Of a DNA stretch of 51,002 nt, positions 7,815-48,620 are shown piece after piece. The notes below the pieces were generated by a model. It saw only the letters and a program-made list of their open reading frames with translations, was not told where the DNA came from and did no database searches. The stretch covers positions 1 through 51,002 of the forward strand of contig JAZNRH010000087.1 of assembly GCA_045590615.1 (NCBI GenBank), read 5' to 3'. Position numbers and translations under genes: made by a program. Within the stretch, counting starts at the first letter, position 1; every line of letters begins with the position of its first letter. Source of the DNA: Eubacteriales bacterium. Its GTDB lineage: Bacteria; Bacillota; Clostridia; Oscillospirales; SIG627.

Positions 7815-7823
7815 GAGGTAAAT

Positions 7824-15913: not shown

Positions 15914-15964
15914 CAAAGAAATGTTAATATGCTAAAATTAGGAAAAACAACTAAGGAGCATATT

Positions 15965-17556: not shown

Positions 17557-18564
17557 TTAGTGTTGCTTTTTGAGTGTTTTTTCTGCAAAGTTCCATGCCG
17601 AACGGCACATATCGTCGAGTCCGAGCTTGGTTTTCCAGCCGAGCTCACGGTATGCCTTTTCGGGGTCTGCGAGGTAGATGGGGATATCACCGGGTCTGCG
17701 CTCGGTTATTACGTAGGGCACCTTGAGTCCGTTTGCTTTTTCAAATGCCTTTACGATATCGAGTACGCTATAGCCCGTTCCTGTTCCGAGATTGTAGATG
17801 TGAACGCCTGCCTCGGTGAGCTTTTCGATTGCTGCAATATGACCGAGAGCGAGGTCGGTTACGTGAATATAGTCGCGCACTCCCGTTCCGTCGTGGGTGG
17901 GGTAGTCGTTTCCGAACACGCTGAGCTGGTAAAGCTCACCTGCAGCTACCTTAACGATATACGGCATAAGGTTGTTTGGAATACCGTTGGGGTTTTCTCC
18001 GATCAATCCACTTTCGTGCGCGCCGATTGGGTTGAAATATCGAAGGAGTGTTACGTTCCATTCGGCATCTGATTTTGCAAGGTCGGTGTAAATCTTTTCT
18101 ATCATCAGCTTGGTCGTGCCGTACGGATTTGTGGTAGAGAGGGGGAAATCCTCTCTGATCGGTACGGTCTCGGGCTCACCGTAGACGGTTGCCGATGAGC
18201 TGAAGATAATTTTCTTACAACCGTATTTTGCCATAACCTCGGCAAGAACCGTTGAGCTTGCTATATTGTTATAATAGTACATCAACGGCTTGACGCAGGA
18301 TTCTCCTACAGCCTTGAGACCTGCAAAATGAATTACAGCGTCAATTTTGTTTTCCTTGAAAATATTTTCGGTATCTTCTCTTTGTGTTAAATCAACGAGA
18401 TAGAATTTGGGCTTCGTACCCGTGATTTCTTCGATTTTATCAAGAACGGTTTCGCTTGAGTTTGAGAGGTTGTCTGCGATAATTACTTCGTAGCCCTTTT
18501 GTATAAGCTCAACTGCAGTGTGTGAGCCGATATATCCCGTTCCACCTGTAACAAGTATTGTCAT
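17557..18564 (-). CDS. galE: UDP-glucose 4-epimerase
   Basis: TGGTGYIGSH, HFAGLKAVGES, YGTTK, LRYFNPIGAH, GVRDYIHV. Confidence 0.95.
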   Translation of the reverse strand: MTILVTGGTGYIGSHTAVELIQKGYEVIIADNLSNSSETVLDKIEEITGTKPKFYLVDLTQREDTENIFKENKIDAVIHFAGLKAVGESCVKPLMYYYNNIASSTVLAEVMAKYGCKKIIFSSSATVYGEPETVPIREDFPLSTTNPYGTTKLMIEKIYTDLAKSDAEWNVTLLRYFNPIGAHESGLIGENPNGIPNNLMPYIVKVAAGELYQLSVFGNDYPTHDGTGVRDYIHVTDLALGHIAAIEKLTEAGVHIYNLGTGTGYSVLDIVKAFEKANGLKVPYVITERRPGDIPIYLADPEKAYRELGWKTKLGLDDMCRSAWNFAEKTLKKQH

Positions 18565-21375: not shown

Positions 21376-22284
21376 ATGAATATATACGATATAATTGTAG
21401 TTGGCGCAGGTCCTGCAGGGCTTACGGCAGCGCTATATGGATTGAGAGCAGGCAAGAGCGTGCTCATACTTGAAAAAGGTGCGTTTGGAGGTCAGGCGAC
21501 TTTTAGTCCAAAAATTGAAAACTACCCCGGAATGACTCAGATTTCAGGTAATGAGCTTGCTGACAAAATGGTTGAGCAGGTGCTTTATCAAGGCGCAGAG
21601 GTTGAAGTTGAAGAGGTGCTTGAGGTAAAGAACGAGGGCGAGCTGAAAAGGATTATCACCGACTCGGGCGAGCATCTTGCCAGAGCTGTTGTAATTGCAA
21701 CGGGTGCTGAGCATCGCAGACTTGGTGTAGACGGTGAGAGCAAGTTTATAGGAGACGGTATTTCCTTTTGTGCAGTTTGTGACGGTGCTTTTTATGCCGA
21801 TAAAGAGGTTGCAGTTATAGGTGGTGGCAACAGCGCTCTGCAAGAGGCTTTATCTCTTTCGGAAATTTGCAAGAAGGTTACAATCGTTCAGAATCTTGAT
21901 TTCTTAACGGGCGAAAAGAGACTTGCCGAGTTGATTGAAAAGAAGGACAATATTGACGTAATTCTTTCTCATACGGTTGAAAGGGTTTTGGGAGACGACG
22001 TTTTCGCAGGTATTGTGATAAAGGGAAGCGAAGGCGAGAGAGAGCTGGGGCTCGACGGAATGTTTGTGGCAATCGGTCTTTCTCCAGCAACTGCAGGCTT
22101 TGAAAACCTGACCGAGCTTGACAAGTGGGGCTATTTTATCGCAGATGAAGGCTGCACTACAAGCACAGAGGGCGTCTTCGTGGCAGGTGATTGCCGTACC
22201 AAGTCAATCAGACAGATTTCCACGGCTACTGCCGATGGCGCTGTTGCGGCGCTTGCTGCAGTGAAATACATAGAGAATAAGTAA
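21376..22284 (+). CDS. trxB: Thioredoxin-disulfide reductase
   Basis: GAGPAG, IENYPG, CAVCDG, GGGNSA, GVFVAGD. Confidence 0.93.
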   Translation: MNIYDIIVVGAGPAGLTAALYGLRAGKSVLILEKGAFGGQATFSPKIENYPGMTQISGNELADKMVEQVLYQGAEVEVEEVLEVKNEGELKRIITDSGEHLARAVVIATGAEHRRLGVDGESKFIGDGISFCAVCDGAFYADKEVAVIGGGNSALQEALSLSEICKKVTIVQNLDFLTGEKRLAELIEKKDNIDVILSHTVERVLGDDVFAGIVIKGSEGERELGLDGMFVAIGLSPATAGFENLTELDKWGYFIADEGCTTSTEGVFVAGDCRTKSIRQISTATADGAVAALAAVKYIENK

Positions 22285-22300
22285 TAAGTAAAAGGAATAA

Positions 22301-22340
22301 GAAAGGAAGAAAATCGCCAAAGCGATTTTCTTCCTTTTTT
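22301..22340 (+). terminator. trxB intrinsic terminator
   Basis: AAAGGAAGAAAATCGC-CAAA-GCGATTTTCTTCCTTT followed by Ts. Confidence 0.85.
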
Positions 22341-22550
22341 ATCATATAGGAAATTGCTTTGAATTAACCTCGCCGTTTTGCCTTGCTTTAGTTTAGAAAA
22401 AGTAAGGATAGGCGAGATTCGCCAGCGACGGCTCGTCGCTTTTTTATCATATAGGAAATTGCTTTGCATTAACCTCGCCGTTTTGCCTTGCTTTAATTTA
22501 GAATAAGTAAGGATAGGCGAGATTTGCCAGTGGCGGCTCGCCACTTTTTT
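22341..22550 (+). repeat. Tandem duplication of a 105-bp structured element
   Basis: Units start at 22341 and 22446 and differ by 8 substitutions. Each unit holds several hairpins and ends in a 7-bp hairpin plus T-run. Confidence 0.92.
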
Positions 22551-24486
22551 ACTTTATTGTAATTATGAAGACTTCAGGATGGATTGGTTTTATCGGGCAG
22601 TTGATGGTTATATCTTTCCCCGATTTTTCAAAGTCTACGGGAACGTCCTCGCCCTTTCCGTTTATGCGAACAACTTTTTCAACTTCTGCGTCAATCCAGA
22701 GTGGAAGGTTTTCCAGGATATCCCAGCCGAGTGCAAAGGGTGCTACGATATATTCCTTGTCCGAAAGCATACCTGCTCTCAGAAATACCTCGCTGTCTCC
22801 TGTATAATAAAGTGGCAGAGCGCCAAGCTCCAAAAGGATTTTCACCATTTGTTTTTTACGGCTTTCGTTGAGGAACGAGAAGCCCTGAGTGTAAGTGAAC
22901 GGCGCTTTAGGTGTGCCTGCAAAGGTAATGGTGGTTTTTGCGTCCTCTCTTTTGTATATTGCAGTTGCAGGGAAGAGGTGTACTCTGTCAACGTCGTTTT
23001 CAAGATGATATGCAAACGAGTCTGCGATGATTTCCTTTTCGGGAACAAGCTCGAGCAGGTTCATTTGATTTTGACACGTTCCACCGTTTGAAAGCTCTTC
23101 GCCCGTAATGGTTGCACCTGTCCATTTTCTTGTAGAGACTCCGAGATATTTTGCGTAGCCACGTTTCGTTAAAGGCTCAACACATTCAGAGGAAAGAATT
23201 ACGTTGCCCGAGAAAATTTTATCAAGGCTTTCGTCGGAAAAGTAGTCGATTGACGATGACAGGAAGGATACGTTGGCAGTCTCGTCGGTAAAATAGAAGG
23301 GTACGCCGATTCTTTCAAGGAAAAATTCCGAGAAAGAACAGTTGTCTTCCGGCCAATTATAAGTTCTTTCTCTGTGGAATGAGAAATCGGTTGATACTTC
23401 AAAGGGAACGGCAGCGCCAACCCACTTTATTTTGGGGGCGAGTTCGGTTATTCTTTCGTACATTCCCTTGTGATCGTTGAGTGTTTTTCTGTATGCCTTA
23501 CCACTATCTGGTTCATAAGCTGAAAGTCTTGTAAACCAATGCTTAGCACCTGTGCATCCGTCTAACAGGTCTGTTGTAAATTGTGCGTGCAAAACGGTTG
23601 CGCTCTTGCCGTAGCGATTGAAGGGAATGGTGTCGGTTTCGGCAAGAATTACGTCAACGCCTTCTCTTTTAAGCTTTGTTATAGTACGGGCACTTCTTTG
23701 AGCTATGTTTGAAAAGCCTCGCATATTCTGAGGAGCATAGATTCCGTTTGGAACGCGCACGATGGTCGGGTTGCCCTTTCCTGCAAAGGCTTTGCCGGTC
23801 AGAGCTCCAAATTCGCAAAAGTTTCCACCTACGCAGATTGCACCCTGAATGGTTGGGTCGATTTCGTCAATACCCTCTCGAATTGCGCAGATTGTTTCGT
23901 AAAGGGAGTCCTTTTGAGTATCGGAGAATACCCTTGTAATCGGGTCGTTTATGGGGTGGGTTTGAGTATAATTCCAGAGCTCCTCTCGAGTCATATTCAG
24001 ACCTGTACGACGGTTGAATTCTGCCATGTGAAGATGGCAGGCACAGCCGTGACCCTGACGGTAGAGCAAGCGAAAGTCGTCGTCAATCATTATTACGCTT
24101 GGGTGACAAGTGGCAAGCTGTCTGAAAGCATTTTTCAGATATTCTCTGAGTCTTTCGTCGGCAGGACAGCCAACAAAGGTTTCTTCACCGTCGTTGAGAT
24201 TTTTTAATGGTGTGAAGGAGATTGGATTATTCAACGGGTAACCGTGACCCAAGGATGATTGAACCAATATTCCGGAGGGCACGCCGATGGCGTCAAGTTT
24301 TTCTTTGAATTGCAAATACTTGTTGCACAGTGGGGTTGTTTTATCAATTGGGGGCTTTCCTTCAGCGTGAAGCTTCATATAAAAAAGTGGAATGGAAATT
24401 CCTTTTTCATATAAATCCTTAACATCTTCACATATCTGGTCAATGTGATTGATGTCAAGTGGTGTTATTGAATAAAGATGTTTCAT
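22549..24486 (-). CDS. Uncharacterised 645-aa protein, possibly glycoside-hydrolase-like
   Basis: Long ORF with an AAGGAGG RBS. Acidic and Cys motifs MIDDDFRL, GCACHLH and AETD. The function is only a guess. Confidence 0.7.
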   Translation of the reverse strand: MKHLYSITPLDINHIDQICEDVKDLYEKGISIPLFYMKLHAEGKPPIDKTTPLCNKYLQFKEKLDAIGVPSGILVQSSLGHGYPLNNPISFTPLKNLNDGEETFVGCPADERLREYLKNAFRQLATCHPSVIMIDDDFRLLYRQGHGCACHLHMAEFNRRTGLNMTREELWNYTQTHPINDPITRVFSDTQKDSLYETICAIREGIDEIDPTIQGAICVGGNFCEFGALTGKAFAGKGNPTIVRVPNGIYAPQNMRGFSNIAQRSARTITKLKREGVDVILAETDTIPFNRYGKSATVLHAQFTTDLLDGCTGAKHWFTRLSAYEPDSGKAYRKTLNDHKGMYERITELAPKIKWVGAAVPFEVSTDFSFHRERTYNWPEDNCSFSEFFLERIGVPFYFTDETANVSFLSSSIDYFSDESLDKIFSGNVILSSECVEPLTKRGYAKYLGVSTRKWTGATITGEELSNGGTCQNQMNLLELVPEKEIIADSFAYHLENDVDRVHLFPATAIYKREDAKTTITFAGTPKAPFTYTQGFSFLNESRKKQMVKILLELGALPLYYTGDSEVFLRAGMLSDKEYIVAPFALGWDILENLPLWIDAEVEKVVRINGKGEDVPVDFEKSGKDITINCPIKPIHPEVFIITIK

Positions 24487-24584
24487 TTTTGCTTCCTCCT
24501 TTATCTGTCTAAATTATATCAGAAACAGTAAAATCAGACAACACTAATAATCGTCAATTTGAACAAAAAAATGAAACAATATTG

Positions 24585-26438
24585 TTATATACCGAGCAGC
24601 GCTGCTCCTATAATTCCCGCATCGTTTCCGAGCTTTGCAAGTTTGATTTCTGTATGCTTGGCAGAAAATCTTGTATATGCATGCTTTTCAAGTCTTTTTT
24701 TCAAAGGCTCTATAATTGCTTCTCCCTCGTGGCTGATGCCTCCTCCTATGGTGATAATTTCGGGCTGGAATACGTTGGTTACGTTAAGCACGCCCTCTGC
24801 AAGATAGGACAGATATCTGTCAATAACATTTTTTGCAACGTCGTCCTTTGCTAAAAACGGAGTTTTTCCGTTTACTGCGTTTATGTCCCCGTTGACTACT
24901 CTCCAAAGGTCAGAGTCGGGATTTTCTTCCATAGCTTTTTTTGTTTGGCGAACGAGTGCAGTCGCTGAGGTATACGCCTCAAGACATCCGTTTCTTCCAC
25001 AGTTGCATGGCTCGCCGTCCACAACGATTACGGTGTGTCCAAGCTCTCCACCCATGCCCCATTGACCTGTCATGAGCTTGCCGTCGATGATTATACCACC
25101 ACCAACACCCGTACCCAGAGTTATCATTATCATACTGCCCGTGTTTTTTCCCGAGCCTGCAATATATTCTCCCCATGCGGCAGCGTTGGCATCATTTTCA
25201 ATATAAATCGGTTTGCCAAGTCTGCTTTTTATGTAGTCTACTACGGGAGTGTTTATAAAGCCCAGATTGTTGGCAAATACAACGACGCCCGTGTCTTTGT
25301 CTATAGAGCCCGGGAATCCCATGCCTATGGATTCGATTTGCTCAAAATCAAGTCCCGATGCCTTGGTACACTCGTATGCGCACGCAATTACGTCGTCTAA
25401 TATTTCGGTATACGGTCTTGGAGCTCGCGTCTTTTTTCTTGCCCTCCCGTATATATTTCCTTTATGGTCTACTACTGCTGTAGCAATGTTTGTGCCTCCC
25501 AAGTCGATTCCGACAAAGTAGCGTGGTGCGTTTTCTGTCATAATGATTTTAGCATATCCTTTCATACTCCACTTGCCGTAGTCGGCAGGTACGAAAAAGC
25601 TGTCTCCTGCCTTGAAGCGTTCGTTTTCAATTGATGCTTCACCCGATACAAGTGTTACTAAATTATAACTTTCACAGTCGGTTTCAAATTCTTGCTCGCC
25701 CGTTACGTTAAGCTCTGAAACCTTAAAGAATTTTGATTGCCCGAGCACTCTGGTGTTGTTTACCGTTGGAGTGAGTCTTGGCCGGTATGGGGTTAGCTTT
25801 ATCGAGCGAAGCCCTTTTTCTACGTGTAAATCACGTGGCTTGCCGTCCTTTCCAACTCTTCCCCAATCATAAAGCCGATAGGTTATATTTGAATTTTGCT
25901 GGATTTCGAGAATTACGCTGCCTGTGCCGATTGCGTGAACGGTTCCTGCAGCTACAAAGAAGCAGTCGCCTGCCTTGGAGTCAAATACGTTGAGCTTGCT
26001 TTCGAGAGTGTTGTTTTCTATTGCAGTTCTGATGTCATTTTTGGAGACTCCGGTTTTTATGCCACAATAAATTTTTGAATCTTTTTCGGCGTCGATGACG
26101 TACCACATTTCCGTTTTGCCGACTCCGTTTTCCAGAGCTTTTGCAGTTTCATCGTCGGGATGAACCTGAAGGCTTAAATGAGATTTTGCATCTATAAACT
26201 TTACGAGTACGGGAAACTCGTCGCTGATACGTCTCGTGCCAAGCACTTCGGGGTTTTTGGCTATATAATCCTTCAGTGTTGTTTTGTCCGAAAGCAGAGT
26301 TTCTCCGTCGGTATGACAGCTTGCCTCCCAGCTTTCTGCAATAACTCTGTTGGCACTTCCTTTGCCGTACAGCTTGTTAAGTCTGTTTCCACCCCATATA
26401 TAGTCTTTATATGCGGGGTAAAGCTTTTCTATTTTCAT
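24585..26438 (-). CDS. Fusion of class I mannose-6-phosphate isomerase and ROK-family sugar kinase
   Basis: N-half: LSLQVHP, GKTEMWY, GTVHAIG, EIQQNS. C-half: GIDLGGT, ENDANAAA, GTGVGGG, GELGH, CNCGRNGCLE. Confidence 0.9.
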   Translation of the reverse strand: MKIEKLYPAYKDYIWGGNRLNKLYGKGSANRVIAESWEASCHTDGETLLSDKTTLKDYIAKNPEVLGTRRISDEFPVLVKFIDAKSHLSLQVHPDDETAKALENGVGKTEMWYVIDAEKDSKIYCGIKTGVSKNDIRTAIENNTLESKLNVFDSKAGDCFFVAAGTVHAIGTGSVILEIQQNSNITYRLYDWGRVGKDGKPRDLHVEKGLRSIKLTPYRPRLTPTVNNTRVLGQSKFFKVSELNVTGEQEFETDCESYNLVTLVSGEASIENERFKAGDSFFVPADYGKWSMKGYAKIIMTENAPRYFVGIDLGGTNIATAVVDHKGNIYGRARKKTRAPRPYTEILDDVIACAYECTKASGLDFEQIESIGMGFPGSIDKDTGVVVFANNLGFINTPVVDYIKSRLGKPIYIENDANAAAWGEYIAGSGKNTGSMIMITLGTGVGGGIIIDGKLMTGQWGMGGELGHTVIVVDGEPCNCGRNGCLEAYTSATALVRQTKKAMEENPDSDLWRVVNGDINAVNGKTPFLAKDDVAKNVIDRYLSYLAEGVLNVTNVFQPEIITIGGGISHEGEAIIEPLKKRLEKHAYTRFSAKHTEIKLAKLGNDAGIIGAALLGI

Positions 26439-27520
26439 TGTTTTTTCTTTCTGTTATAAAATTCAGCGTACCATTCAGCAAAGCGTCTGAGACCTGTTTC
26501 AAGAGAGGTAGACGGCTTGAACCCAAAATCTTCTTCGAGAGCAGACGTATCTGCGTAGGTTATGGGAACGTCACCTGCTTGCATGGGTACAAGTCTGCGA
26601 TGTGCGTCGAAGTCAAAATCTTCAGGAAGAACCTTTGCGCGAACAAGCTCACGAGAGAGAATGTCAACAAAGTCCAAAAGATTTTCGGGGTTATTATTTC
26701 CTATGTTGTAAACAGCGTAGGGTGGTACGGGAAGCCCGTCCTCTCCGAGTTTTTTCTCGGGAGCTGCTTGCATTACGCGTTTTACACCTTCCACTATGTC
26801 GTCAACGTAGGTGAAATCTCTTTTACAGTTGCCAAAGTTGAAAATATCGATAGTTTCGCCCTTTATTAGCTTGTTGGTAAAGCTGAAGTATGCCATATCG
26901 GGTCTGCCTGCAGGACCGTAAACCGTAAAAAACCGAAGCCCTGTTGAAGGGATATCGTATAGCTTTGAGTATGCGTGAGCAAAAAGCTCGTTTGATTTTT
27001 TGGTAGCAGCGTAAAGGCTTACGGGGTTGTCTACCTTGTCATCGGTTGCATAAGGGATTTTTTTATTGGAGCCATATACCGATGATGACGAAGCGTATAC
27101 GAGGTGTTCTACAGGGAAGTGTCTGCAAGCTTCAAGAATATTGTAAAAGCCTATAACGTTAGCCTCGATATAAACGTCGGGATTGGTTATTGAATATCTG
27201 ACACCTGCCTGGGCTGCAAGGTTTACAACCACGTCAAAGTGTTCTTTTTCAAAAAGTGAGTCGATAAGGCTTTTATCGGCAATAGAACCCTTTATGAACG
27301 ACCAGCTTGACGAGGGGTATTCTTTCGCAACACAGTCAAGCTCTTTAAGACGAAAGTCCTTTATCGAAACGTCGTAATAGTCATTGAGGTTGTCAATGCC
27401 AACTATATGTATGGGAGAAAAGCTTTTGATAAGCTCTTTTACAAGGTTTGCACCTATAAATCCCGCTGCGCCTGTTACGAGAATTTTTTTACCTTTAAGT
27501 TCAACGTTGATTTTTTTCAT
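26435..27520 (-). CDS. NAD-dependent epimerase, UDP-glucuronate 4-epimerase-like
   Basis: TGAAGFIG, LAAQAGVRYS, SLYAATKK, RFFTVYGPAGRPDMA, as in the CapI/GAE subfamily. Confidence 0.85.
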   Translation of the reverse strand: MKKINVELKGKKILVTGAAGFIGANLVKELIKSFSPIHIVGIDNLNDYYDVSIKDFRLKELDCVAKEYPSSSWSFIKGSIADKSLIDSLFEKEHFDVVVNLAAQAGVRYSITNPDVYIEANVIGFYNILEACRHFPVEHLVYASSSSVYGSNKKIPYATDDKVDNPVSLYAATKKSNELFAHAYSKLYDIPSTGLRFFTVYGPAGRPDMAYFSFTNKLIKGETIDIFNFGNCKRDFTYVDDIVEGVKRVMQAAPEKKLGEDGLPVPPYAVYNIGNNNPENLLDFVDILSRELVRAKVLPEDFDFDAHRRLVPMQAGDVPITYADTSALEEDFGFKPSTSLETGLRRFAEWYAEFYNRKKKQ

Positions 27521-28251
27521 TTTGTAATACCCTTGTATTCCTTTTGCACCCTTTCGTAGCTTTCGAGATTTCCTATATCGTATCTTTTTCCCGGCATTTC
27601 CATTGCGTTTACGGTGGTATTATGACAAAGCCACGCTATAAAGCTGCCCGGCGCATCTGCTCCGGCGCCCTCTTCGAGCGCTTCTGATACCTTTTTTGCG
27701 TCCTCTCTCGTGTAGTAATAAAATGGTGGACAGCACCAATTTGATTCGGGCTTTTCGGGTTTTTCGGTCATATCCACGATTTTGTCGCCTTCAAGCTTGA
27801 CAACGCCTGATTTTGTCAGCCTTTTTTCATCTGCTTCAAAGTATCGCATTACTGCAGAGGTGCCCTTTTCTTTAGCATAGGCTATAAACCTTGTGAGGCT
27901 GAAATCTAAAACGTTATCTCCTGCGATAACCAGCATATCGTCGTCGAGCGCGAGCTTATCTATTGCAAATTGAATATCCCTTACTGCGCCAAGTCTTGTT
28001 TCGTTGCTTTCGGTCATGTCGTCAACAACCGTGATTTTAACACTTTTGGTCTTTGCCCACTCGTTGAAATGAGAAGCGAACTTGTGATTTGAAATTACTA
28101 CGTATTCGTTCACCTCGCCCATGGTGTCAATATCGTCGATTAAATGGTCGAGAATTGTTTTTTCACCGACCTTCAAAAGCGGCTTCGGGAAATTTTCGGT
28201 CAGGGGATACAGTCTTGTTGCATAGCCTGCTGCAAGTATTAAGCAAATCAT
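27517..28251 (-). CDS. Sugar-1-phosphate nucleotidyltransferase
   Basis: LAAGYATRLYPLT..FPKPLL, AGDN, EKP, YDIG. Confidence 0.88.
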   Translation of the reverse strand: MICLILAAGYATRLYPLTENFPKPLLKVGEKTILDHLIDDIDTMGEVNEYVVISNHKFASHFNEWAKTKSVKITVVDDMTESNETRLGAVRDIQFAIDKLALDDDMLVIAGDNVLDFSLTRFIAYAKEKGTSAVMRYFEADEKRLTKSGVVKLEGDKIVDMTEKPEKPESNWCCPPFYYYTREDAKKVSEALEEGAGADAPGSFIAWLCHNTTVNAMEMPGKRYDIGNLESYERVQKEYKGITK

Positions 28252-29678
28252 ATCTTTTCCTCGTTTTTTCTATTTAATCTTACTCCGTCTGACGTGTGGC
28301 AAACGTGAGCGCTGTATTTTCCGTTCAGTTGAGGGAAGGCGTCCAGATATTCCTTTTCAACCTTTTCGAGAATCGATTCTCTTTTTTCGGGGTCGCATAT
28401 ACCTATTACGCAGCCCTTAAAGCCTGCTCCCGAAAAACGTCCTCCGTATACACCGTCGGTTTCTTTTAGTGTTTCCCATAGCTTTATAAGCTCGGGCGAG
28501 CCCGTTTCCCAATTGTGAATGGAAGAATATCCACTTTCAAAGGAGAGTCTGCCGAATTCTTCGATATCTCCTCTTCTGTAAGCTTCTGCACCTGCTTCGA
28601 CTCTCTTGAATTCTCCGTACCAATGCTCTGCTCTTTTCGCCCAGCTTTCAGGCAGTCGATCCTTGTATTTCAAGTATACTTCGTATGGAACGTCTCTGAG
28701 ATTTGTTTCTTCAAATTTTCCGTAGTCAAGCCCTGCAAAAGCCAACAGCGCGTAGGCAGCGCTTCTGCATTCGTCAACTCTCATATTGAATTTACTTGAA
28801 GCAAGCGAGCGTTCAACTCCACTGAAGAAAACGATTATGTCAAAGGGCTTCATATTCTCAGGAGTTTCAATCAGCTCGTAGGAATTGTCCTTCATATCCA
28901 TATAGAGAAGCTTGTCCTTTTGACAGTAAACCTCACAGCTTTGGTCGAGCTTGCCACACGAAACACCTACGTAGCTGTTTTCTGCAAGCTGAGACAGCTC
29001 GATTAACTCACGCGATTTCAGGCGTATTCCGTTCATCGAGGCAAGGGCTGTGAGAAAGGTTATTATAACTGCAGCCGACGAAGAAAGTCCACCTATCGGG
29101 AGCTCTCCGTCAACAATTGCGCAAAGACCTACTCTCAACGGGTACCTTGAAGAAAGCGCTAAGGTTGCGCCCCTGAGGTGGTCTGCCCAGTCGTTTTGTT
29201 TTTCTCTTGGAATTTCTGAAACGTGCCATTGCGCACGCTTTGGAAATTGCAGAGACGTAATTTCTATAATTCCGTTTTGTTTTGGACCGTATGCTATATA
29301 AATACCTTTATCAATTGCAAAGCCAGTAATTTTTCCGAGCTGATGGTCGGAATGTGCACCTATCGGACAGATTCTGTAGGGGGTAAAGGCAATTTTTTCG
29401 GGCTTTCTGAGATACATTTCCTCAAACGCCTTTGAAACACTCAGCCTTGCATTGATCTCTGTATATTTTGTGGTCGTTATTTTTGATACAGCCTCTTCTT
29501 TTTTTTCACTGAATTCCTTTGTTCTTCTGTCAAGAGGCTTGTCTGCGTTCTCGGGAATAAGCCATAGCTTTCCTTCCTTGATTGCACCTGCAATCTGCTT
29601 GCTTCGGCAAAGCGAGGTAATTCTTCTCTCGCTCATTTGCCATTTGCCTGCAGTCTCGTGAACGTCAATGTATTTCAT
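28248..29678 (-). CDS. GHMP sugar kinase (galacturonokinase-like) with N-terminal HTH domain
   Basis: PYRICPIGAHSDHQ, PIGGLSSSAA, CGKLDQ, GGRFSGAGFKG. The N-terminal ~55 aa (ETAGKWQMSERRITSLC...GAIKEGKLWLIP) resembles an excisionase/MerR-like HTH. Confidence 0.85.
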   Translation of the reverse strand: MKYIDVHETAGKWQMSERRITSLCRSKQIAGAIKEGKLWLIPENADKPLDRRTKEFSEKKEEAVSKITTTKYTEINARLSVSKAFEEMYLRKPEKIAFTPYRICPIGAHSDHQLGKITGFAIDKGIYIAYGPKQNGIIEITSLQFPKRAQWHVSEIPREKQNDWADHLRGATLALSSRYPLRVGLCAIVDGELPIGGLSSSAAVIITFLTALASMNGIRLKSRELIELSQLAENSYVGVSCGKLDQSCEVYCQKDKLLYMDMKDNSYELIETPENMKPFDIIVFFSGVERSLASSKFNMRVDECRSAAYALLAFAGLDYGKFEETNLRDVPYEVYLKYKDRLPESWAKRAEHWYGEFKRVEAGAEAYRRGDIEEFGRLSFESGYSSIHNWETGSPELIKLWETLKETDGVYGGRFSGAGFKGCVIGICDPEKRESILEKVEKEYLDAFPQLNGKYSAHVCHTSDGVRLNRKNEEKI

Positions 29679-29714
29679 AATGCCACTCTCCTTTGATTAT
29701 TTAAGCGTAGCATT

Positions 29715-29775
29715 ATTCTAACATTCAAGTTGGCGTTTGTCAAGTCGTATTTTGACAAATGCTTTATTTGTCAAG
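29715..29775 (-). promoter_or_regulatory. Sigma-A promoter of the kinase operon with overlapping repeated TTTGTCAA motifs
   Basis: TTGACA(29743-29738)-17 bp-TAGAAT(29720-29715) with extended TG. Three TTTGTCAA/TTGACAAA copies in alternating orientation. Confidence 0.7.
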
Positions 29776-29782
29776 GTATTTT

Positions 29783-30760
29783 TTACCATTTCATTGCGAT
29801 TGTGTTTTCGGTGAAGGTTCCCATGTTTTCGAGAACTAATATAGCCGAGGCTTTTTCTTTTTCGGCGATTAAGGATAGCCTTTCGGGACAAAACCGAGGG
29901 TCGATCATAATGACGTCGTAATGCTCTGCCAAAAAGGGCGCTAATGCCGAGGCAAAGCTGTCCCTTATAACGAGCAGGGTTTCTCGAGCTCTTCCGTTTC
30001 TTATTGTAATATACGGTGTGTTTCCCTTGAAGTAGACGGTGTATGGGTCCCACGAGTTGAGCGACTCGGAGTTATACATTCCCTCGAGAGTAACGTTATT
30101 TTCGTCACTGTCGTAGGGATATGAGACAATCGTGGTTGTGAAGGAAGGGTAGCTTTCCGAGTAGTAAAGCTCGATGGTATCGTAAATATTCAGCGTTTTG
30201 TCACTTTTATTGTAGTCGCTTCCACGATAGCTGTCGCACGCTTTTACAATTGTAAATTCGATTTCGGGAACGGGTTCTTTTCCCATTTTTGATATTATTT
30301 CGCAATAAGCAAGATACGCTCCCCGAGAGGTCCAATGATGGTCGGTTGCAAAATACAGTCCTTTTTTGTCAAGAACGGAAAGCAGGTCGATGAATTGTAT
30401 ATCGTTTTTGCTACATTCTTTTTCAATAAGCTCAAAGAGCCTTTTGTGAGGGGCTGTATCAATTTCCTCGGGAATGGAATAAACGTCCATCTTTCTCGGT
30501 GGTATTGCGAGGTAGACGGGCAGATTTGTGCTCTTTGCAAGAGAGAGGACAGGCTCGATGTTTTCTTGCACCTTCTTTTTTCCATGGTATGCATAGAGCG
30601 AAATGATATTCTCATTTTCGTCGATATATAAATTTCCGAGCTTGTCTATTACCTTTTCGCTTTTTGAAACCAGCCTTGCATCGCTGTTTAGCCCAAAGGT
30701 TATAAAGCCGATTATAATAAGGCAGGCAAGAAAATAAATAACGGGGTAAAGCTTTTTCAT
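29783..30760 (-). CDS. DHHW family protein
   Basis: N-terminal transmembrane helix; YFATDHHWT, RDSFA and IDPR motifs. Confidence 0.82.
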   Translation of the reverse strand: MKKLYPVIYFLACLIIIGFITFGLNSDARLVSKSEKVIDKLGNLYIDENENIISLYAYHGKKKVQENIEPVLSLAKSTNLPVYLAIPPRKMDVYSIPEEIDTAPHKRLFELIEKECSKNDIQFIDLLSVLDKKGLYFATDHHWTSRGAYLAYCEIISKMGKEPVPEIEFTIVKACDSYRGSDYNKSDKTLNIYDTIELYYSESYPSFTTTIVSYPYDSDENNVTLEGMYNSESLNSWDPYTVYFKGNTPYITIRNGRARETLLVIRDSFASALAPFLAEHYDVIMIDPRFCPERLSLIAEKEKASAILVLENMGTFTENTIAMKW

Positions 30761-31569
30761 TACTTTTTCCTCAAAACTAAAATATAGAATTCTGCTCTGA
30801 TTTTCATGCCGTTAAGTGCACGAATTTTTTCGAGTGCGCCAATCGGTGTTCTCCAGAAATAAGGAGTCATTGAAAAAAGCCTCTCAACGTCAAGGCCGGT
30901 TTCAAGCTCCATATCAAACGAGCATTCTATCCTTTCAACCTCGTCAAAGCCGTCGTACTTCGGATAGGTGATTTCGTTTTCGTAGGGGTTTTCGTAAAGA
31001 AGCTCCTTTAATTCAAAAAGATGCTTTGGAGCAGGAACTGCATAGAGTATTACGCCACCCGATTTCAAAACCCTTTTATATTCCTTGTCTGCCATAGGGG
31101 AGAATACGTTGGTTATAAGGTCTGTACTGTTGTCGGGAAGTGGCAAATCATATACGCTTGCAACGGCAAAGGTTGTTCTCTTTTCTCTTTTTGCAGATGC
31201 ATCGACGGCAAATTTTGAAATATCGACACCAAGGCATACGGGCTCGTTTAGAGCATCTATTACAGCCGAGGTGTAATAGCCCGTGCCACAGCCTGCATCA
31301 AGATATACGATGCTACCCGAAAAAAGCTCGCCTGCTTTTTTTGCAAGGGCGACTCTGAGAGGCTCGTAATAGCCTTTTTCGAGAAATTCCCTTCTTGCCA
31401 TAACCATTTCTTTGCTGTCGCCGGGGAGCTTGGAGTTCATTTTTGAAGGCAAAAGCAGATTGATATATCCGGAGCGCGCTTTGTCAAAGCTGTGTCGGTT
31501 CATACACACGTATGAGCTCTCGTTTGAGTGCAAGGCTTCTTTACAAATGGGACAGATGAAGCTCGTCAT
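30760..31569 (-). CDS. rlmA: 23S rRNA m1G methyltransferase (RlmA family)
   Basis: Zinc finger CPIC...C...H, GDSKEMV..RR.FL..GYY, LDAGCGTGYY, MTPY. Confidence 0.85.
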   Translation of the reverse strand: MTSFICPICKEALHSNESSYVCMNRHSFDKARSGYINLLLPSKMNSKLPGDSKEMVMARREFLEKGYYEPLRVALAKKAGELFSGSIVYLDAGCGTGYYTSAVIDALNEPVCLGVDISKFAVDASAKREKRTTFAVASVYDLPLPDNSTDLITNVFSPMADKEYKRVLKSGGVILYAVPAPKHLFELKELLYENPYENEITYPKYDGFDEVERIECSFDMELETGLDVERLFSMTPYFWRTPIGALEKIRALNGMKIRAEFYILVLRKK

Positions 31570-32054
31570 TTTATCAGCCTTTCTATTTTTGATACGGTTT
31601 TGAACATGGTATCTTCGCTTTCGACTGTCAGGTCTGCATATTTTTCGTACAAAGGTATGCGTTCAAGATACAGGTCTTTAAGAGACATTCCTTTTTTTAT
31701 GGCAATGCCTCGGTGCTTGTAGTCACCAAGCCTTCTTTCGAGCTCTTCGTATGGAATTTTAATATAAACAATCTTTCCGAGGCTTTTGAAATGCTCCATT
31801 GCCTCTTTTCCGTATACGGCACTTCCTCCCGTTGCAATGACAACCTTGCCACCATTTATTGTTTGATTTATTTCATTTTCCAATTTAATAAAACCTTCAG
31901 CACCCATATCGGCAATTATTTCGTGAAGAAGTCTGCCTTCCTTTTCCTGAATAACGAGGTCGGCGTCAACGTATTTGTAGCCGAGAGCTTTCGCGAGAAG
32001 AACTCCGAGAGTACTCTTTCCCGACGAGGGCAGCCCGATTAAAGTAATAGCCAT
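31566..32054 (-). CDS. aroK: Shikimate kinase
   Basis: GLPSSGKST, DAD, IATGGS, ERIPLYEKYAD. Confidence 0.88.
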   Translation of the reverse strand: MAITLIGLPSSGKSTLGVLLAKALGYKYVDADLVIQEKEGRLLHEIIADMGAEGFIKLENEINQTINGGKVVIATGGSAVYGKEAMEHFKSLGKIVYIKIPYEELERRLGDYKHRGIAIKKGMSLKDLYLERIPLYEKYADLTVESEDTMFKTVSKIERLIK

Positions 32055-32182
32055 TCTTTTTACTCCTGATAATGATATAATAGTATATCAATAAATCCGT
32101 TTTTTTTCAAGTAAATACTTGAAAAAATATTTTTGATATGATAAAATTATTATATAATTTTATCATAAAGGGAGATTTTGCT

Positions 32183-32974
32183 ATGAAGATTTACGTTATG
32201 TGTGATTTGGAGGGAATTTGTGGAATAAACTCACCGGATCAGTTGGGCATTGATAAGCCTAAATATGCCGAAGGCAGAGCCTTGCTTACCAGAGAAATGA
32301 ATAACGTTGCCCGTTATCTCAAGGAGGCCGGAGTTGACGAGGTAATTATGCACGACGCACATGGCTCGGGTGCAAACGTAATCTGGAAGGAGCTTTCATC
32401 GGATATAGATGCTTGTGTTACAGGTGCTGTTCCCACTCGTTTTTTTGAGGAGTACGTAAAGGATTGTGATGGTGTTATTCTTCTTGGATATCACGCAATG
32501 GCAGGTACTGCAGGAGCACTTCTTGAGCATACTATGACCTCTGCAGGAATTCAGAACGTTTGGCTCAACGACGAGAAGGTCGGAGAGGTGGCAATAGATG
32601 CCGGTATTCTCGGAGATATGGGTATCCCGGTAATTATGGTTTCGGGAGACGATAAGGTTTGTCTTGAGGCAGGGAAAATTCTTCCATGGGCAGAGCTTGC
32701 TTGTGTAAAGCACAGCGCAAGCACCTTCTGTACAGCGCTTCTTACGCCCGAAAGGTCGGCTGCAGTTTTGAAAAAGGCTATTCATAATGCAATTTCAAGA
32801 ATTTCCGAGATGAAGCCGTATAAGCTTTCAAAGCCCGTTAAGTGTAAGATTGAAGTGGTTGAAAGAAGTCCTATTCCAAGAAGCAGTAACAGAGCTTCTA
32901 TTGAGTACGAGGACGGACGCACCTGTGTTGTTGTGGCAGATACAGTATTTGATGCATTTTACGGTGCAAGGTAG
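32183..32974 (+). CDS. D-aminopeptidase, peptidase family M55 (DppA-like)
   Basis: DLEG, DAHG, GYHA, LEHT, GE and SGDD motifs. Confidence 0.9.
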   Translation: MKIYVMCDLEGICGINSPDQLGIDKPKYAEGRALLTREMNNVARYLKEAGVDEVIMHDAHGSGANVIWKELSSDIDACVTGAVPTRFFEEYVKDCDGVILLGYHAMAGTAGALLEHTMTSAGIQNVWLNDEKVGEVAIDAGILGDMGIPVIMVSGDDKVCLEAGKILPWAELACVKHSASTFCTALLTPERSAAVLKKAIHNAISRISEMKPYKLSKPVKCKIEVVERSPIPRSSNRASIEYEDGRTCVVVADTVFDAFYGAR

Positions 32975-34372: not shown

Positions 34373-34557
34373 GCGTTTATGGGGATTTTCCTTACGGTGT
34401 ATTTCCTTACATTCGGGTGGCTTCTTCCAAATGATTGTATACCGAAATGTGAACACGGTTGTTGCAGGATTAAATCACTTCAAAATTCAAATTTAACTCT
34501 CTGTTTTCGAAAAGCACCGTGTTTCATATACAAATTCAATACACAGGAGGAGCAATT

Positions 34558-35352
34558 ATGAGTGAAGCAAAAGTAATAGCAATCGCAAATCAAAAAGGCG
34601 GAGTTGCCAAAACAACTACAACTTTAAATTTAGGAGTCGGTCTTGTAAGACTCGGTAAAAAGGTTTTACTTGTCGATGCCGATCCTCAAGGAAGCCTTAC
34701 CATAAGTCTCGGAATCAAGAATCCGGATACGATAAAGAATACCCTTTCGAAGCTTATGCAAAACGCAATAGAGAAAAACTATTTCGTCCCGCACTTCTTT
34801 ACTTTCAAGCACGATGAAGGTGTAGATTTCATTCCCGCCAACATAGAACTTTCAGGTATCGAAATCAGCCTTGTAGGTCTGAAAGAACGTGAACTCGTAC
34901 TTAAGAAAAGCCTACAGGAATATCTGCCACTTTATGACTACATAATCATCGATTGCATGCCGTCACTTGGACTTATGACAATCAATGCACTTGCGGCCGC
35001 CGATAGTGTAATCATTCCGACACAGGCAAATTACCTGTCTGCCAAAGGTCTTGATTTATTGATGTACTCCATAGCAAAAACAAAGCAGGACATTAATCCT
35101 GAGCTTAGGATAGACGGAATACTTCTCACAATGGTGGATAAGCGAACAAGGAATGCACGGATGATAGACAATTTACTGCATGAGACATTCAGCAGCGGAT
35201 TACACTTATTCTTTTCTGAAATTCCGGCTTCAGTCACTGTCCAGGAGTGCAGTAATGAAGGAAAAAGCATTTTTACACGTGGACAACACAACAAGGTTGC
35301 TATAGCATACGATAGATTCTCAAGGGAGGTTGAAGGAATTGAAAGGAAATAG
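34558..35352 (+). CDS. parA: ParA/Soj family ATPase
   Basis: NQKGGVAKTTT, DADPQG, IIDCMPSLG. AGGAGG RBS. Confidence 0.92.
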   Translation: MSEAKVIAIANQKGGVAKTTTTLNLGVGLVRLGKKVLLVDADPQGSLTISLGIKNPDTIKNTLSKLMQNAIEKNYFVPHFFTFKHDEGVDFIPANIELSGIEISLVGLKERELVLKKSLQEYLPLYDYIIIDCMPSLGLMTINALAAADSVIIPTQANYLSAKGLDLLMYSIAKTKQDINPELRIDGILLTMVDKRTRNARMIDNLLHETFSSGLHLFFSEIPASVTVQECSNEGKSIFTRGQHNKVAIAYDRFSREVEGIERK

Positions 35353-36265
35353 AATTGATTTAGGGCTTACGGGATACAACGAACTGTTTTCAAGTGAGTC
35401 AAGCCGTAACGAATCAAAACGCCCCAAGATAATGGACATACCTCTATCGGAAATCGACGATGCTCCAAATCATCCGTTTAAGGTTCGTATTGATGAGGAT
35501 ATGTACAAGCTTGTCGAGAGCATCAAGGAGAACGGCGTTATAGAACCTGCCATACTTCGAAAGAAAGCAGACGGCAGATATGAAATTGTGGCAGGACACA
35601 GACGAAGAAAAGCCTGTGAGCTTGCCGAGATTGAAACTCTCAAATCCGTAATTCTTGATATTGGCTATGATGAAGCTGTTGTTATGATGGTAGAATCAAA
35701 CTTTCAGCGTACAAAGTTACTTCCAAGCGAGCTAGCCTTTTCATACAAGATGAGAATGGATGCTCTAAAACGGCAAGGTAAACGCACCGATATAACTTCG
35801 TCTCCAATGGAGACAAAGTTGAGAAGTGATGAAAAACTTGCTGAGATGAGTGGCAATAGCCGAGCACAAATTCAGCGATATATTCGCCTCACTAACCTTA
35901 TACCTGCTCTGCTTGATATGGTAGACGAAGAAAAAATAGGTTTTCGTCCTGCAGTTGAACTGTCGTATCTCTCGGGAGCAGAACAAGAGCTTCTTCTCGA
36001 TACTATAAAATGTGAGGAAGCAACCCCTTCTCTTGCACAAGCACTTAAAATGAAGCAGTTTTCAAAAGACGGCAAACTTGATGCAGATAAGATCCTTGAA
36101 ATTATGTGCGAAAGAAAACCAAATCAGGCAGAAAAGATTACATTCAAAGCCGAGTCTTTAAGAAAATATATCCCCCGTAGTATCATCTCCCCTAAAGAAA
36201 CCGAGGAATACATTCTTAAGGCATTGGCACATTACAGAGACTTTTTGAAAGAAGGAAACCAATGA
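35330..36265 (+). CDS. parB: ParB/RepB/Spo0J family partition protein
   Basis: HPFKV, YEIVAGHRR, RQGKRTD, IQRYIRLT. TTG start with GGGAGG RBS. Confidence 0.9.
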   Translation: MKELKGNRIDLGLTGYNELFSSESSRNESKRPKIMDIPLSEIDDAPNHPFKVRIDEDMYKLVESIKENGVIEPAILRKKADGRYEIVAGHRRRKACELAEIETLKSVILDIGYDEAVVMMVESNFQRTKLLPSELAFSYKMRMDALKRQGKRTDITSSPMETKLRSDEKLAEMSGNSRAQIQRYIRLTNLIPALLDMVDEEKIGFRPAVELSYLSGAEQELLLDTIKCEEATPSLAQALKMKQFSKDGKLDADKILEIMCERKPNQAEKITFKAESLRKYIPRSIISPKETEEYILKALAHYRDFLKEGNQ

Positions 36266-36654
36266 GGAAACTATACGCATACAAAAAAGAAAACACTTGT
36301 CCAGTTCAGAAATTCATTGACAACTTGAATGGCAAGATAAAAGCAAAGTTTATGTTTCAGCTAAGCTACATAATGGATGAAAGAAACGGCTTTGTCGAGC
36401 CTTATATCAAGCACTTTTCAATGGAAAGATACAGACAGATGTATGAAATAAGAGTAAAGGCAGCGGAAAGAATGATGAGAATCATCTTTTACGAAAAGAA
36501 CGGTGAAATAATCCTTCTTCATGCCTTTTATAAACACGACCGCAAGGACACCGAAAAAGCACTCGAAACGGCACACAAAATTTTAGAAAACATTACCGAC
36601 AAAAACGGCAATGTAAAAGAAGAATACAGAAAGGAGTTGGTACTGTGTGATTAA
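36262..36654 (+). CDS. RelE/ParE superfamily (Gp49-like) toxin-fold protein
   Basis: PVQKFID, EPYIKH, YEIRV, RIIFY and ILLHAFYK pattern. Confidence 0.75.
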   Translation: MRKLYAYKKENTCPVQKFIDNLNGKIKAKFMFQLSYIMDERNGFVEPYIKHFSMERYRQMYEIRVKAAERMMRIIFYEKNGEIILLHAFYKHDRKDTEKALETAHKILENITDKNGNVKEEYRKELVLCD

Positions 36655-37657
36655 CGTAGTAATATGGCTCGGCAAAATAAAGTACAGTGCAGATCTTGCT
36701 ATAGTTTTCGCAAGAAACAACATCCGCATTGTTGATGAGAACTTCGAAAACACCGATGATTTTATCGACAGATTTGATTCTCTTGATGCAAATGTTGATG
36801 TACTTGTAATTGCTGATGCTTTGCTTTTAGGTACGGACAGAAAGAAACTGTTTCAGCGCATTCGACAGATTGAGCCTAATATCAGAATCGTCATTGTTTT
36901 TCCGGGTTATCGCAACCAGTATATCGAAGACCAGATATCCGAATATAAAAATGTTTACGGTATAACCGACATTATTTATGAAGGTTCAAGACTTGATGAG
37001 GAATACTTCGCCGACGTTATCAAGAAAGGCTACATATACGATTACGAGGTTAATGTATACGATGAACCCGGTGAGGTTACAAAGCCTATACTCCCCGAAA
37101 AGAAATGTATTTCGATTGGTATTCTCGGCTTTACTCACGGATGCGGTGTTACAAACGAGGTCATAAATACCGCAGGATATATTTCCATTACCCAGAATGG
37201 AAACGTCAAGGCAATTGACTTTTCGGGAACAGGAAATCTCAGATTTGCAAAGACAAAAGGCGTTACATATATCGTTCATTCTGACATCGACATTGCAAGG
37301 ATAAGAAAGACAAGTAAGGCTGTGGTATACGATTTTGGAACACCATTCAACATATCCTCTAAGGGAAAGCTTCTGTCATATAACGAGTGCTATGACGAAG
37401 AGAAGATGAAGCTTTTCAGAGAGTGTGACCTCAAGGTGTGCAAGTGCTTTTCGGACAGTTGGCACATAGGAAAAATGAAATATTTCTTGAACGATAAGTT
37501 CTGGAGCCGGGAGATAGACGATAGTTACATAATATTACTCGATAAAGTCCCGAGAGACTCGCAAAACTTGAGTTCGAGGATAAATATATGCGGCAGAAAT
37601 GATACGGTTCTTACTGACCGGCTTGCGGTTCTTTTCTCCGTAAAGGATGGTGAATAG
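36647..37657 (+). CDS. Hypothetical protein: receiver-like domain plus degenerate P-loop domain
   Basis: N-terminal DVLVIAD...PNIRIVIV resembles a receiver fold. SIGILGFTHGCGVT resembles a MinD/CpaE-type P-loop lacking the Walker A lysine. Confidence 0.6.
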   Translation: MINVVIWLGKIKYSADLAIVFARNNIRIVDENFENTDDFIDRFDSLDANVDVLVIADALLLGTDRKKLFQRIRQIEPNIRIVIVFPGYRNQYIEDQISEYKNVYGITDIIYEGSRLDEEYFADVIKKGYIYDYEVNVYDEPGEVTKPILPEKKCISIGILGFTHGCGVTNEVINTAGYISITQNGNVKAIDFSGTGNLRFAKTKGVTYIVHSDIDIARIRKTSKAVVYDFGTPFNISSKGKLLSYNECYDEEKMKLFRECDLKVCKCFSDSWHIGKMKYFLNDKFWSREIDDSYIILLDKVPRDSQNLSSRINICGRNDTVLTDRLAVLFSVKDGE

Positions 37658-37717
37658 AAATGTTTCGTTAAATTACACTTATCACAAAAGCAAAATTTTG
37701 AAAAGGAGCTGAAAGAA

Positions 37718-38623: not shown

Positions 38624-38624
38624 G

Positions 38625-39479: not shown

Positions 39480-39530
39480 GAAGCAATCAGCGTCAAACAC
39501 AATTTTAACCAAACTAAAGGAGAAATCAAA

Positions 39531-40616: not shown

Positions 40617-40631
40617 CCTAATATAAACTTT

Positions 40632-40663
40632 AAGCAGACTGAAAAAAACGGTCTGCTTTTTTT
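40632..40663 (+). terminator. Intrinsic terminator or attenuator before the adhesin gene
   Basis: AAGCAGACTG-AAAAAAA-CGGTCTGCTT followed by a T-run. Confidence 0.7.
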
Positions 40664-40686
40664 ATTACAAGAAGGAGGACATAAAA

Positions 40687-48162: not shown

Positions 48163-48174
48163 ACTCCATTTCCC

Positions 48175-48200
48175 GTGGGCTGTCGTAAAAGGCAGCCCAC
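48175..48200 (+). terminator. Stem-loop after the adhesin gene
   Basis: GTGGGCTGTC-GTAAAA-GGCAGCCCAC. No clear U-tract. Confidence 0.55.
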
Positions 48201-48222
48201 AACCATTTTAAGAAAGGATGCG

Positions 48223-48579: not shown

Positions 48580-48620
48580 AAATGAAATACAAAATAACTA
48601 AATAAAGGGGGTGCTGTCTT

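Follow-up and report, generated by a model that had tools for sequence, protein, structure and literature searches.

Organization of a putative galacturonate salvage locus

The window analyzed here, meaning the whole 51,002-nt stretch of DNA, is contig C87 (JAZNRH010000087.1) of a 1.8-Mb Eubacteriales genome from the order Oscillospirales (assembly GCA_045590615.1; 88% complete). On its minus strand it carries an operon of overlapping genes, headed by a GHMP kinase, that we propose to encode a three-step salvage module activating free D-galacturonate (GalA). The features of the locus, with the basis for each assignment, are as follows.

29678..28248, minus strand: GHMP kinase gene, 476 aa (open reading frame listing)
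29544..29678, minus strand: predicted N-terminal winged-helix DNA-binding domain, kinase residues 1-45 (predicted structure and fold match)
28248..29453, minus strand: galacturonokinase (GalAK)-like GHMP anomeric sugar kinase domain, residues 76-476, proposed substrate D-galacturonate (Pfam, signature and tree)
28251..27517, minus strand: sugar-1-phosphate nucleotidyltransferase, 244 aa, proposed UDP-galacturonate pyrophosphorylase (Pfam PF00483 and synteny)
27520..26435, minus strand: UDP-glucuronate/UDP-galacturonate 4-epimerase homologue, 361 aa (PDB matches and residues)
26438..24585, minus strand: fusion of mannose-6-phosphate isomerase (PMI) and ROK sugar kinase, 617 aa (domain matches)
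29715..29743, minus strand: predicted sigma-70-type promoter, TTGACA, 17 nt, TG-extended TAGAAT (motif score)
29733..29774, strand-neutral: operator-like repeats (palindrome and third half-site)

The first-pass annotation of this DNA had described three overlapping, co-oriented genes for a kinase, a nucleotidyltransferase and an epimerase, and these were recovered with the positions, strand and Pfam families claimed, each junction between them being a 4-nt ATGA stop/start overlap. It had overlooked the PMI-ROK gene, which overlaps the epimerase gene by the same ATGA arrangement and is probably co-transcribed with it, as well as the separate N-terminal domain of the kinase. An Rfam scan of positions 22000-32500 returned no families at gathering score.

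The kinase belongs to a GalAK-like clade distinct from galactokinases

The kinase matches GHMP_kinases_N (PF00288, 4.9e-12), GalKase_gal_bdg (PF10509, 5.8e-11) and GHMP_kinases_C (PF08544, 1.1e-9), and a structure search assigned its kinase domain to the GalK fold (E 3e-22). It scores 197.2 bits against the galactokinase model TIGR00131, under the cut-off of 226.65, and falls below four other GalK models as well. Its substrate motif, FTPYRICPIGAHSDHQ (residues 98-113), differs from the GalK motif GRVNLIGEHTDY. The likeness to plant GalAK noted initially for this motif agrees with three sequences compared here, the galacturonokinase-named proteins of Camellia sinensis (P0223, 40% identical to the kinase) and Tetracentron (P0242) and a Spirogloea protein (P0219), all of which carry SPYRICPLGAHIDHQG. 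The kinase and these plant and algal proteins have a PYRxCPxGAHxDHQ signature in common. The canonical GalT-GalK pair of the same genome lies on contig C111, and its GalK reaches 352 bits and carries SPGRVNLIGEHIDYNG.

We aligned 42 GalAK-like sequences with 10 canonical GalK sequences, and the columns that split the two clades all fall in the sugar-binding signature (GalK to query: N->C104, L->P105, E->A108, Y->H112 and N->Q113). Complete separation of the groups (100% versus 100%) is seen for E->A and Y->H, indicating that the departure from GalK is systematic and not due to chance, and together these two changes would take away a negative charge at the sugar site. In GalK, the C6 hydroxyl would be in contact with this Glu, for which no literature source was found. 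Among the 150 best representatives, the strict signature [PF]xRxxxxGAHxDH[QN] occurs in 110 and the GalK type in one, the remaining 39 being fragments or variants.

A HMMER scan of 1.84 billion representatives yielded 860 proteins at E <= 1e-30. We inferred a quick IQ-TREE phylogeny of 68 rows, comprising the query, 38 full-length members of the 150 representatives (fragments and unpicked rows were left out), five GalAK-like proteins of the same order, three plant or algal proteins, 10 GalK and 11 kinases of a third type. All 47 GalAK-like rows (44 from prokaryotes or metagenomes and the three from plants or algae) define one clade with a Shimodaira-Hasegawa-like approximate likelihood ratio (SH-aLRT) support of 100, apart from both GalK and the third type. 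The kinase hence groups with the plant and algal galacturonokinase-named rows and not with ordinary GalK, as its initial description as a plant-type enzyme had anticipated. The third-type kinases, a GalK-like family marked by PGR[ST]E[IV]xGNHTDHN, form a clade of their own (SH-aLRT 100). They are found in other genomes of the order (L019-L033), with no member in the window, and most of the GalK-like matches left in the order, where 83 of 101 genomes have some match, are of this type.

The GalAK-like family is patchy, yet present in several phyla. It occurs in 6 of 101 genomes sampled from the order, compared with 10 of 101 for canonical GalK, and in 3 of 401 genomes sampled from the phylum at more than 500 bits, the next-best scores there being 319 bits or less. 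The fetched records come mostly from animal guts and belong to Clostridia, Bacteroidales, Sphaerochaetaceae, Erysipelotrichaceae and Planctomycetes. Among named carriers, Sphaerochaeta sp. S2 and Clostridium sp. AM49-4BH have the module, and Xylanibacter ruminicola has a transferase-epimerase fusion. Several metagenome members are auto-named 'galacturonokinase' or 'galactokinase/galacturonokinase' by the Joint Genome Institute (JGI). In the literature outside paywalled papers, no report of a bacterial galacturonokinase was found, the papers on the kinase concerning plants or tool enzymes. On signature and phylogeny, the kinase is thus classed as GalAK-like and not as an ordinary galactokinase, and it is predicted to phosphorylate D-GalA at C1 in an ATP-dependent manner.

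A small nucleotidyltransferase and a uronate-type epimerase complete the predicted route

The second gene encodes a protein whose residues 4-239 match NTP_transferase (PF00483, 1.6e-31, 110 bits) and whose N-terminal loop, AAGYATRL, is of the G-x-G-T-R-L type. Within its 244 aa the domain matches are limited to PF00483, PF12804 and a weak PF01128, and it reaches no NCBIfam equivalog cut-off. The genome holds five other PF00483 genes, so the operon transferase need not be the housekeeping one. A plant-type UDP-sugar pyrophosphorylase was ruled out, there being no UDPGP (PF01704) domain of about 600 aa, and so was a GalT-type transferase, since PF00483 takes its place here and GalT stands beside GalK on C111. 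The label 'Leloir-like' given initially to the operon is imprecise: GalT is absent, and a kinase paired with a small PF00483 pyrophosphorylase follows the logic of plant salvage. The proposed substrates of the transferase are GalA-1-phosphate (GalA-1-P) and UTP.

The third protein, a short-chain dehydrogenase/reductase (SDR), matches the Pfam Epimerase family (9.9e-54) and, among solved structures, 5u4q (8.9e-110) and Bacillus cereus UGAepi (6zl6, 5.4e-42). It carries the catalytic Ser/Thr-Tyr-Lys residues and the carboxylate-binding positions of this type (Thr126, Ser127, Ser128 and Thr178 in BcUGAepi) with no Glu at 128; aligned to 6zl6, it has Ser/Ser/Ser at Thr126/Ser127/Ser128 and keeps the Tyr, the Lys and the segment FTVYGPxGRPDMA. 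In a study of UGAepi, the serines, Tyr, Lys and FTVYGP segment are described as holding the substrate carboxylate, and such enzymes as often rejecting neutral UDP-sugars or converting them with strongly decreased activity (PMC7984243). The epimerase is 26% identical to the GalE-type gene of the genome, in which no further SDR of uronate-epimerase type was found. These residues suggest that it interconverts UDP-glucuronate (UDP-GlcA) and UDP-galacturonate (UDP-GalA).

Gene neighborhoods and fusion proteins link the three predicted steps

We fetched 80 genome loci with relatives of the kinase, out of at least 554 matching stretches. In 73 of the 80, the next gene downstream on the kinase strand is a homologue of the transferase, and 76 loci contain such a homologue at some position; among the other four is one with a downstream flank of just 297 nt. 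In control loci around GalK or third-type kinases, an adjoining transferase was seen in none of 25. An epimerase resembling UDP-glucuronate 4-epimerase (UGlcAE-like) lies within 2.5 kb of the kinase in 44 of the 80 loci. The gene neighborhood proposed for scrutiny by the first-pass annotation is therefore conserved, and these counts support, at the level of gene order, a link among the three predicted enzymatic steps. Homologues of the PMI-ROK fusion appear in only two of the 80 loci (L080 and L099), and this gene was dropped as a pathway member. In L080, the closest relative (kinase 83-84% identical), NTP_transf_5 and Wzy_C genes stand between the epimerase and PMI-ROK.

The transferase also occurs within 96 longer proteins. 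Its partner is a UGlcAE-like epimerase in 53 of them and, in N-terminal position, a GalAK-like kinase in 11, the other partners including aldose 1-epimerase (two proteins), a GalE-type epimerase (one) and, in a eukaryotic protein, another GHMP kinase (one). The 570-aa kinase-transferase fusions (P0178, P0400-P0407) are without the last ~75 kinase residues, and their kinase part may be impaired; this C-terminal loss is not seen in the full-length fusions P0382 and P0411. Forms of 903-906 aa combining a membrane protein with the kinase also exist and may be merged gene calls.

As a separate observation, the fusion proteins P0354, P0355, P0372, P0376, P0377, P0431, P0432 and P0434 show assorted partners, some perhaps merged gene calls: the transferase is joined to aldose 1-epimerase or to UDP-glucose dehydrogenase (UGDH), and the kinase to a Wzx-like membrane protein or to a transferase bearing a hexapeptide-repeat domain.

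Neighbors in the 80 loci include UGDH (19 loci), Wzx-type flippases, Wzy, GT2 glycosyltransferases, UDP-GlcNAc 2-epimerase, DegT aminotransferases, CapD-like enzymes and FKP, an FKP-like gene being present in three. Within the 43 loci flanked by 5 kb or more on each side, an epimerase and/or UGDH is present in 27 and at least one polysaccharide-synthesis neighbor in 26.

A proposed anabolic route from galacturonate to UDP-uronates

In the route that we propose, the GHMP kinase would phosphorylate GalA at C1, the small nucleotidyltransferase would convert GalA-1-P and UTP to UDP-GalA, and the SDR epimerase would equilibrate UDP-GalA with UDP-GlcA; these UDP-uronates would then feed glycosyltransferases building envelope or capsule polysaccharides. 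We estimate the probability that the operon encodes this three-step salvage module at roughly 0.6. The route from GalA to UDP-GalA and UDP-GlcA that had been put forward initially gains support from the tree, the synteny and the pairwise fusions, while we infer the sugar and nucleotide specificities, as well as the direction of flux, the DNA binding and the fate of the product.

The GalA would be released by the GH28 enzymes of the organism and otherwise burnt via UxaC. Both UxaC and three GH28 genes are present in the genome, indicating that GalA should reach the cytoplasm, where it has its usual catabolic outlet, and the polysaccharide-synthesis neighbors in related loci make the route look anabolic. 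We accordingly read the module as anabolic salvage and not catabolism, its context of surface polysaccharide loci appearing biosynthetic, which corrects the first-pass annotation. The suggestion that a nearby GH28 enzyme serves as a linked supplier of GalA fell away, as a homologue of the window GH28 occurs in none of the 80 loci within the fetched stretch (up to 7 kb on each side). That GH28 protein (15929-17440, plus strand), which has no signal-peptide-like N-terminus, adjoins a GalE-type epimerase (17557-18564, minus strand), and it is this GalE type, not the uronate type, that adjoins the kinase-transferase pair in seven related Bacteroidales loci.

No NDP-sugar dehydrogenase was found in the genome of the window (G000), nor in two of the five other module-bearing genomes of the order, G010 (96% complete) and G066 (93%). 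With no UGDH found, the module may be the sole UDP-uronate source of this genome, which would then depend on pectin-derived GalA for these sugars.

Comparison with known nucleotide-sugar pathways

The closest counterpart is the plant route of GalAK (EC 2.7.1.44) and UDP-sugar pyrophosphorylase, with which the module shares the kinase clade, the signature and the succession of an anomeric kinase and a pyrophosphorylase; as in plants, a de novo UGDH-epimerase route exists alongside it in 17 of the 80 related loci. It differs in its second enzyme, a 244-aa PF00483 protein with no UDPGP family match, in the organization of its genes in an operon, with fused forms elsewhere, and in the predicted DNA-binding domain of part of the clade. 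With the Leloir pathway (GalK, GalT, GalE) it has in common a GalK-fold anomeric kinase and a 4-epimerase acting on a nucleotide sugar, but it has no GalT-type uridylyltransferase.

The L-fucokinase/GDP-fucose pyrophosphorylase FKP of Bacteroides likewise pairs a GHMP kinase with a nucleotidyltransferase and turns a scavenged sugar into a capsule donor (PMC11982464), although sugar, nucleotide and protein families are different and FKP is always fused. Zebrafish GKUP, a glucuronokinase with a putative UDP-GlcA pyrophosphorylase whose activity was barely detectable, also joins a uronate kinase to a short bacterial-type nucleotidyltransferase (PMC3938481). Its kinase is of the glucuronokinase type, for which almost no identity with GalAK is reported (PMC2823444). 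A eukaryotic protein with transferase and GHMP domains (P0429) is 33% identical to the transferase of the window. The B. cereus UGAepi (6zl6) and the Klebsiella epimerase (5u4q) agree with the epimerase of the window in the carboxylate-binding serines and in the Tyr and Lys of the catalytic site; the latter enzyme, unlike UGAepi, has Ser for Thr126 and is associated with a salvage kinase and not with UGDH only.

A putative DNA-binding domain, promoter and operator

Kinase residues 1-45 were modeled as a strand-helix-helix-strand-strand fold with a pLDDT (predicted local distance difference test) of about 88, after which a linker of low confidence extends to about residue 75. The best fold match of this domain is lambda Xis in complex with DNA (1rh6_B; TM-score 0.66/0.74, root-mean-square deviation 1.7 A, E 0.033), and sequence matches below cut-offs were obtained with HTH_17 (E 0.014) and, at homologue level, TIGR01764 (E 2.4e-4). 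The domain is present in all of the 120 best clusters (70-100% identity) but in just 10 of the 80 genome loci. An Xis-like N-terminal domain (84 bits) is also seen on a 426-aa protein of the same genome (L117; contig C7, 1471-2751, plus strand), which has a helical middle region and, at its C-terminus, a LuxR-type helix-turn-helix (HTH); a TGTCA palindrome was not seen upstream of its gene.

The predicted promoter, with 11 of 12 matches plus the TG extension, is the top-scoring site within positions 22000-32500. It stops 37 nt short of the ATG of the kinase gene, and a GGAG ribosome-binding site can also be recognized. At 29752-29774 there is a perfect palindrome, TTGACAAAT-N5-ATTTGTCAA, which is followed by a third half-site, TTGACAAAC, that coincides with the -35 box. 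The palindrome pattern has a single match in the window and none in 100 shuffles. A TGTCA-N(4-34)-TGACA repeat within 150 nt upstream of the kinase is found in the window, as well as in 7 of the 10 loci with an HTH fusion, compared with none of 68 non-fused loci (two more had too little upstream sequence) and 6 of 2000 shuffles. A wider regulon was considered and dropped, as the strict palindrome has one other genomic site, in the proA coding sequence, and a control pattern was equally frequent.

Since the inverted repeat is confined to HTH-fused loci, autoregulation is suggested: the operon would run from its own promoter, the TGTCAA...TTGACA repeats that cover the -35 box are probably recognized by the Xis-like domain of the kinase, and the kinase would thereby regulate its own operon. 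Weighing on the other side, the association of operator and domain is a correlation inside one related clade, as the fused loci are kin and many non-fused kinases lie inside operons. A sugar-kinase fold is coupled to transcriptional control of its own pathway in yeast Gal1/Gal3 and in the ROK repressors NagC and Mlc, in contrast with which a putative Xis/MerR-like winged helix is here fused directly to an apparently intact GHMP kinase. We know of no described case of such a fusion, although no literature search was aimed at it. The pathway logic is already known from plants and some bacterial members are already auto-annotated; the putative DNA-binding fusion is the most original part of the finding.

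Alternative explanations

Several observations weigh against the proposed salvage of GalA. The plant and algal rows of the tree are named by homology and the characterized Arabidopsis enzyme is not among them. The closest solved relative of the transferase stands at 1.1e-11 only, which bears on its nucleotide specificity, and the sugar-site loops of the kinase model have pLDDT values below 50, so that the model offers no structural argument on specificity and was not used for that purpose. The operon itself holds no transporter or glycosyltransferase gene, and the apparent lack of UGDH may reflect the 88% completeness of the genome. Five of the 96 longer transferase proteins are fused to UGDH, an arrangement that would also fit a transferase making UDP-glucose (UDP-Glc).

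Further observations that weigh against it also favor a specific alternative, in which the same architecture activates another sugar (mainly D-glucuronate, both uronates, or a different galacto-configured sugar such as L-arabinose or an amino or acetamido uronate) to provide an NDP-sugar for polysaccharide loci. The conserved core consists of the kinase and the transferase, neither epimerase nor UGDH being found in 16 of the 43 full-flank loci, and a GalE-type epimerase takes the epimerase position in the seven Bacteroidales loci and in one fusion. In addition, Phe replaces the Tyr of plant and GalK proteins in the query and in 88 of 91 pattern-matched clade members (120 scanned), at a position that would be a sugar contact in GalK relevant to C4 discrimination. 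An effect of this Tyr-to-Phe change has reportedly been described for plant GalAK, and the substitution may shift or widen specificity. Against another sugar stand the plant galacturonokinase-named proteins within the kinase clade, the uronate-specific type of epimerase as the commonest fusion partner and neighbor and, as reported for plants, the near absence of sequence identity between glucuronokinase and GalA kinase (PMC2823444). We regard this explanation as unlikely, although it is the strongest of the alternatives.

It is appreciably less probable that the HTH-kinase is chiefly a sugar-sensing transcription factor, comparable to Gal3p or NagC/Mlc, with kinase activity lost or secondary and the substrate of the transferase coming from elsewhere. 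The fusion of the predicted DNA-binding domain in all 120 closest clusters, the restriction of the inverted repeat to fused loci and the recurrence of the domain on a LuxR-type regulator elsewhere in the genome would all agree with such a role. However, Arg102, Asp111, Asp245, the PIGGLSSSAA loop and GAGFKGC, which comprise the catalytic and ATP motifs, are invariant throughout the fused clade, the kinase-transferase order is kept in non-fused relatives, and another source of uronate-1-phosphate is not evident. The invariance of these residues favors an active, autoregulating enzyme. Building on the salvage reading, we tentatively raise the possibility, which we would not yet expect to hold, of a bifunctional trigger enzyme: an active GalA 1-kinase, probably dimeric, would sit on an operator over its own -35 box and release the DNA on sensing GalA or ATP/GalA-1-P, UGDH-less carriers would make uronate glycans only when GalA from dietary pectin is at hand, and the diet of the host would set surface composition.

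An ordinary Leloir paralogue, made up of a galactokinase, a transferase producing UDP-Glc or UDP-Gal and a GalE, appears very improbable. The Pfam galactose-binding signature does match the kinase, its best solved relatives are galactokinases and the source annotations read 'galactokinase family protein', but the kinase lies under the cut-off of every galactokinase equivalog model and in a separate clade, a GalE-type gene and a canonical GalT-GalK pair already exist in the genome, and the epimerase, only 26% identical to that GalE-type gene as against a match of 9e-110 to a solved NAD-dependent epimerase, has the uronate-binding residues. Least probable is that the operon feeds galacturonate into catabolism by a path other than the isomerase pathway, a reading that would suit a pectinolytic genome with three GH28 genes but is opposed by the presence of UxaC, by the failure to find in this genome an enzyme returning UDP-uronates to central metabolism (no UGDH, no further such SDR) and by the biosynthetic neighbors in related loci.

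Other features of the window

The remainder of the window consists chiefly of housekeeping genes, plus a mobile-looking block past 34 kb. This block (34519-50783, plus strand) encodes ParA/ParB, a sortase, a transglutaminase-like protein, a 2491-aa adhesin with SpaA repeats and a thioester domain, and a TrbL-like protein, and resembles a mobile or conjugative element with a pilus or adhesin. An MBOAT and DHHW/AlgX-like pair lies at 6420-8948 (plus strand), and a second DHHW gene (29783-30760, minus strand), syntenic in L080, directly upstream of the operon; these genes are possible O-acetylation machinery for a cell-wall polymer. A 645-aa protein (22549-24486, minus strand) has no Pfam or NCBIfam match and clusters with hypothetical proteins, its nearest named clusters being probable glycosyl hydrolases, which we note as a lead only. 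It was dropped as a pathway member, having a homologue in none of the 80 loci and a promoter-like site of its own (24541..24513).

Implications

Should specific kinases and a dedicated UDP-GalA pyrophosphorylase be confirmed, the family would provide a source of bacterial enzymes for biocatalysis, a field in which, according to one report, synthesis of UDP-GalA failed for want of a suitable kinase, the known GalA kinase being unstable and weakly active (PMC7984243). A DNA-binding domain on an intact GHMP kinase, together with a matching operator, would represent a compact example of an operon controlled by one of its own enzymes. If the salvage reading is true, herbivore-gut anaerobes of several phyla would scavenge the main pectin monomer straight into envelope nucleotide sugars, in a parallel to fucose salvage by Bacteroides that would, in some genomes, replace the de novo dehydrogenase route.

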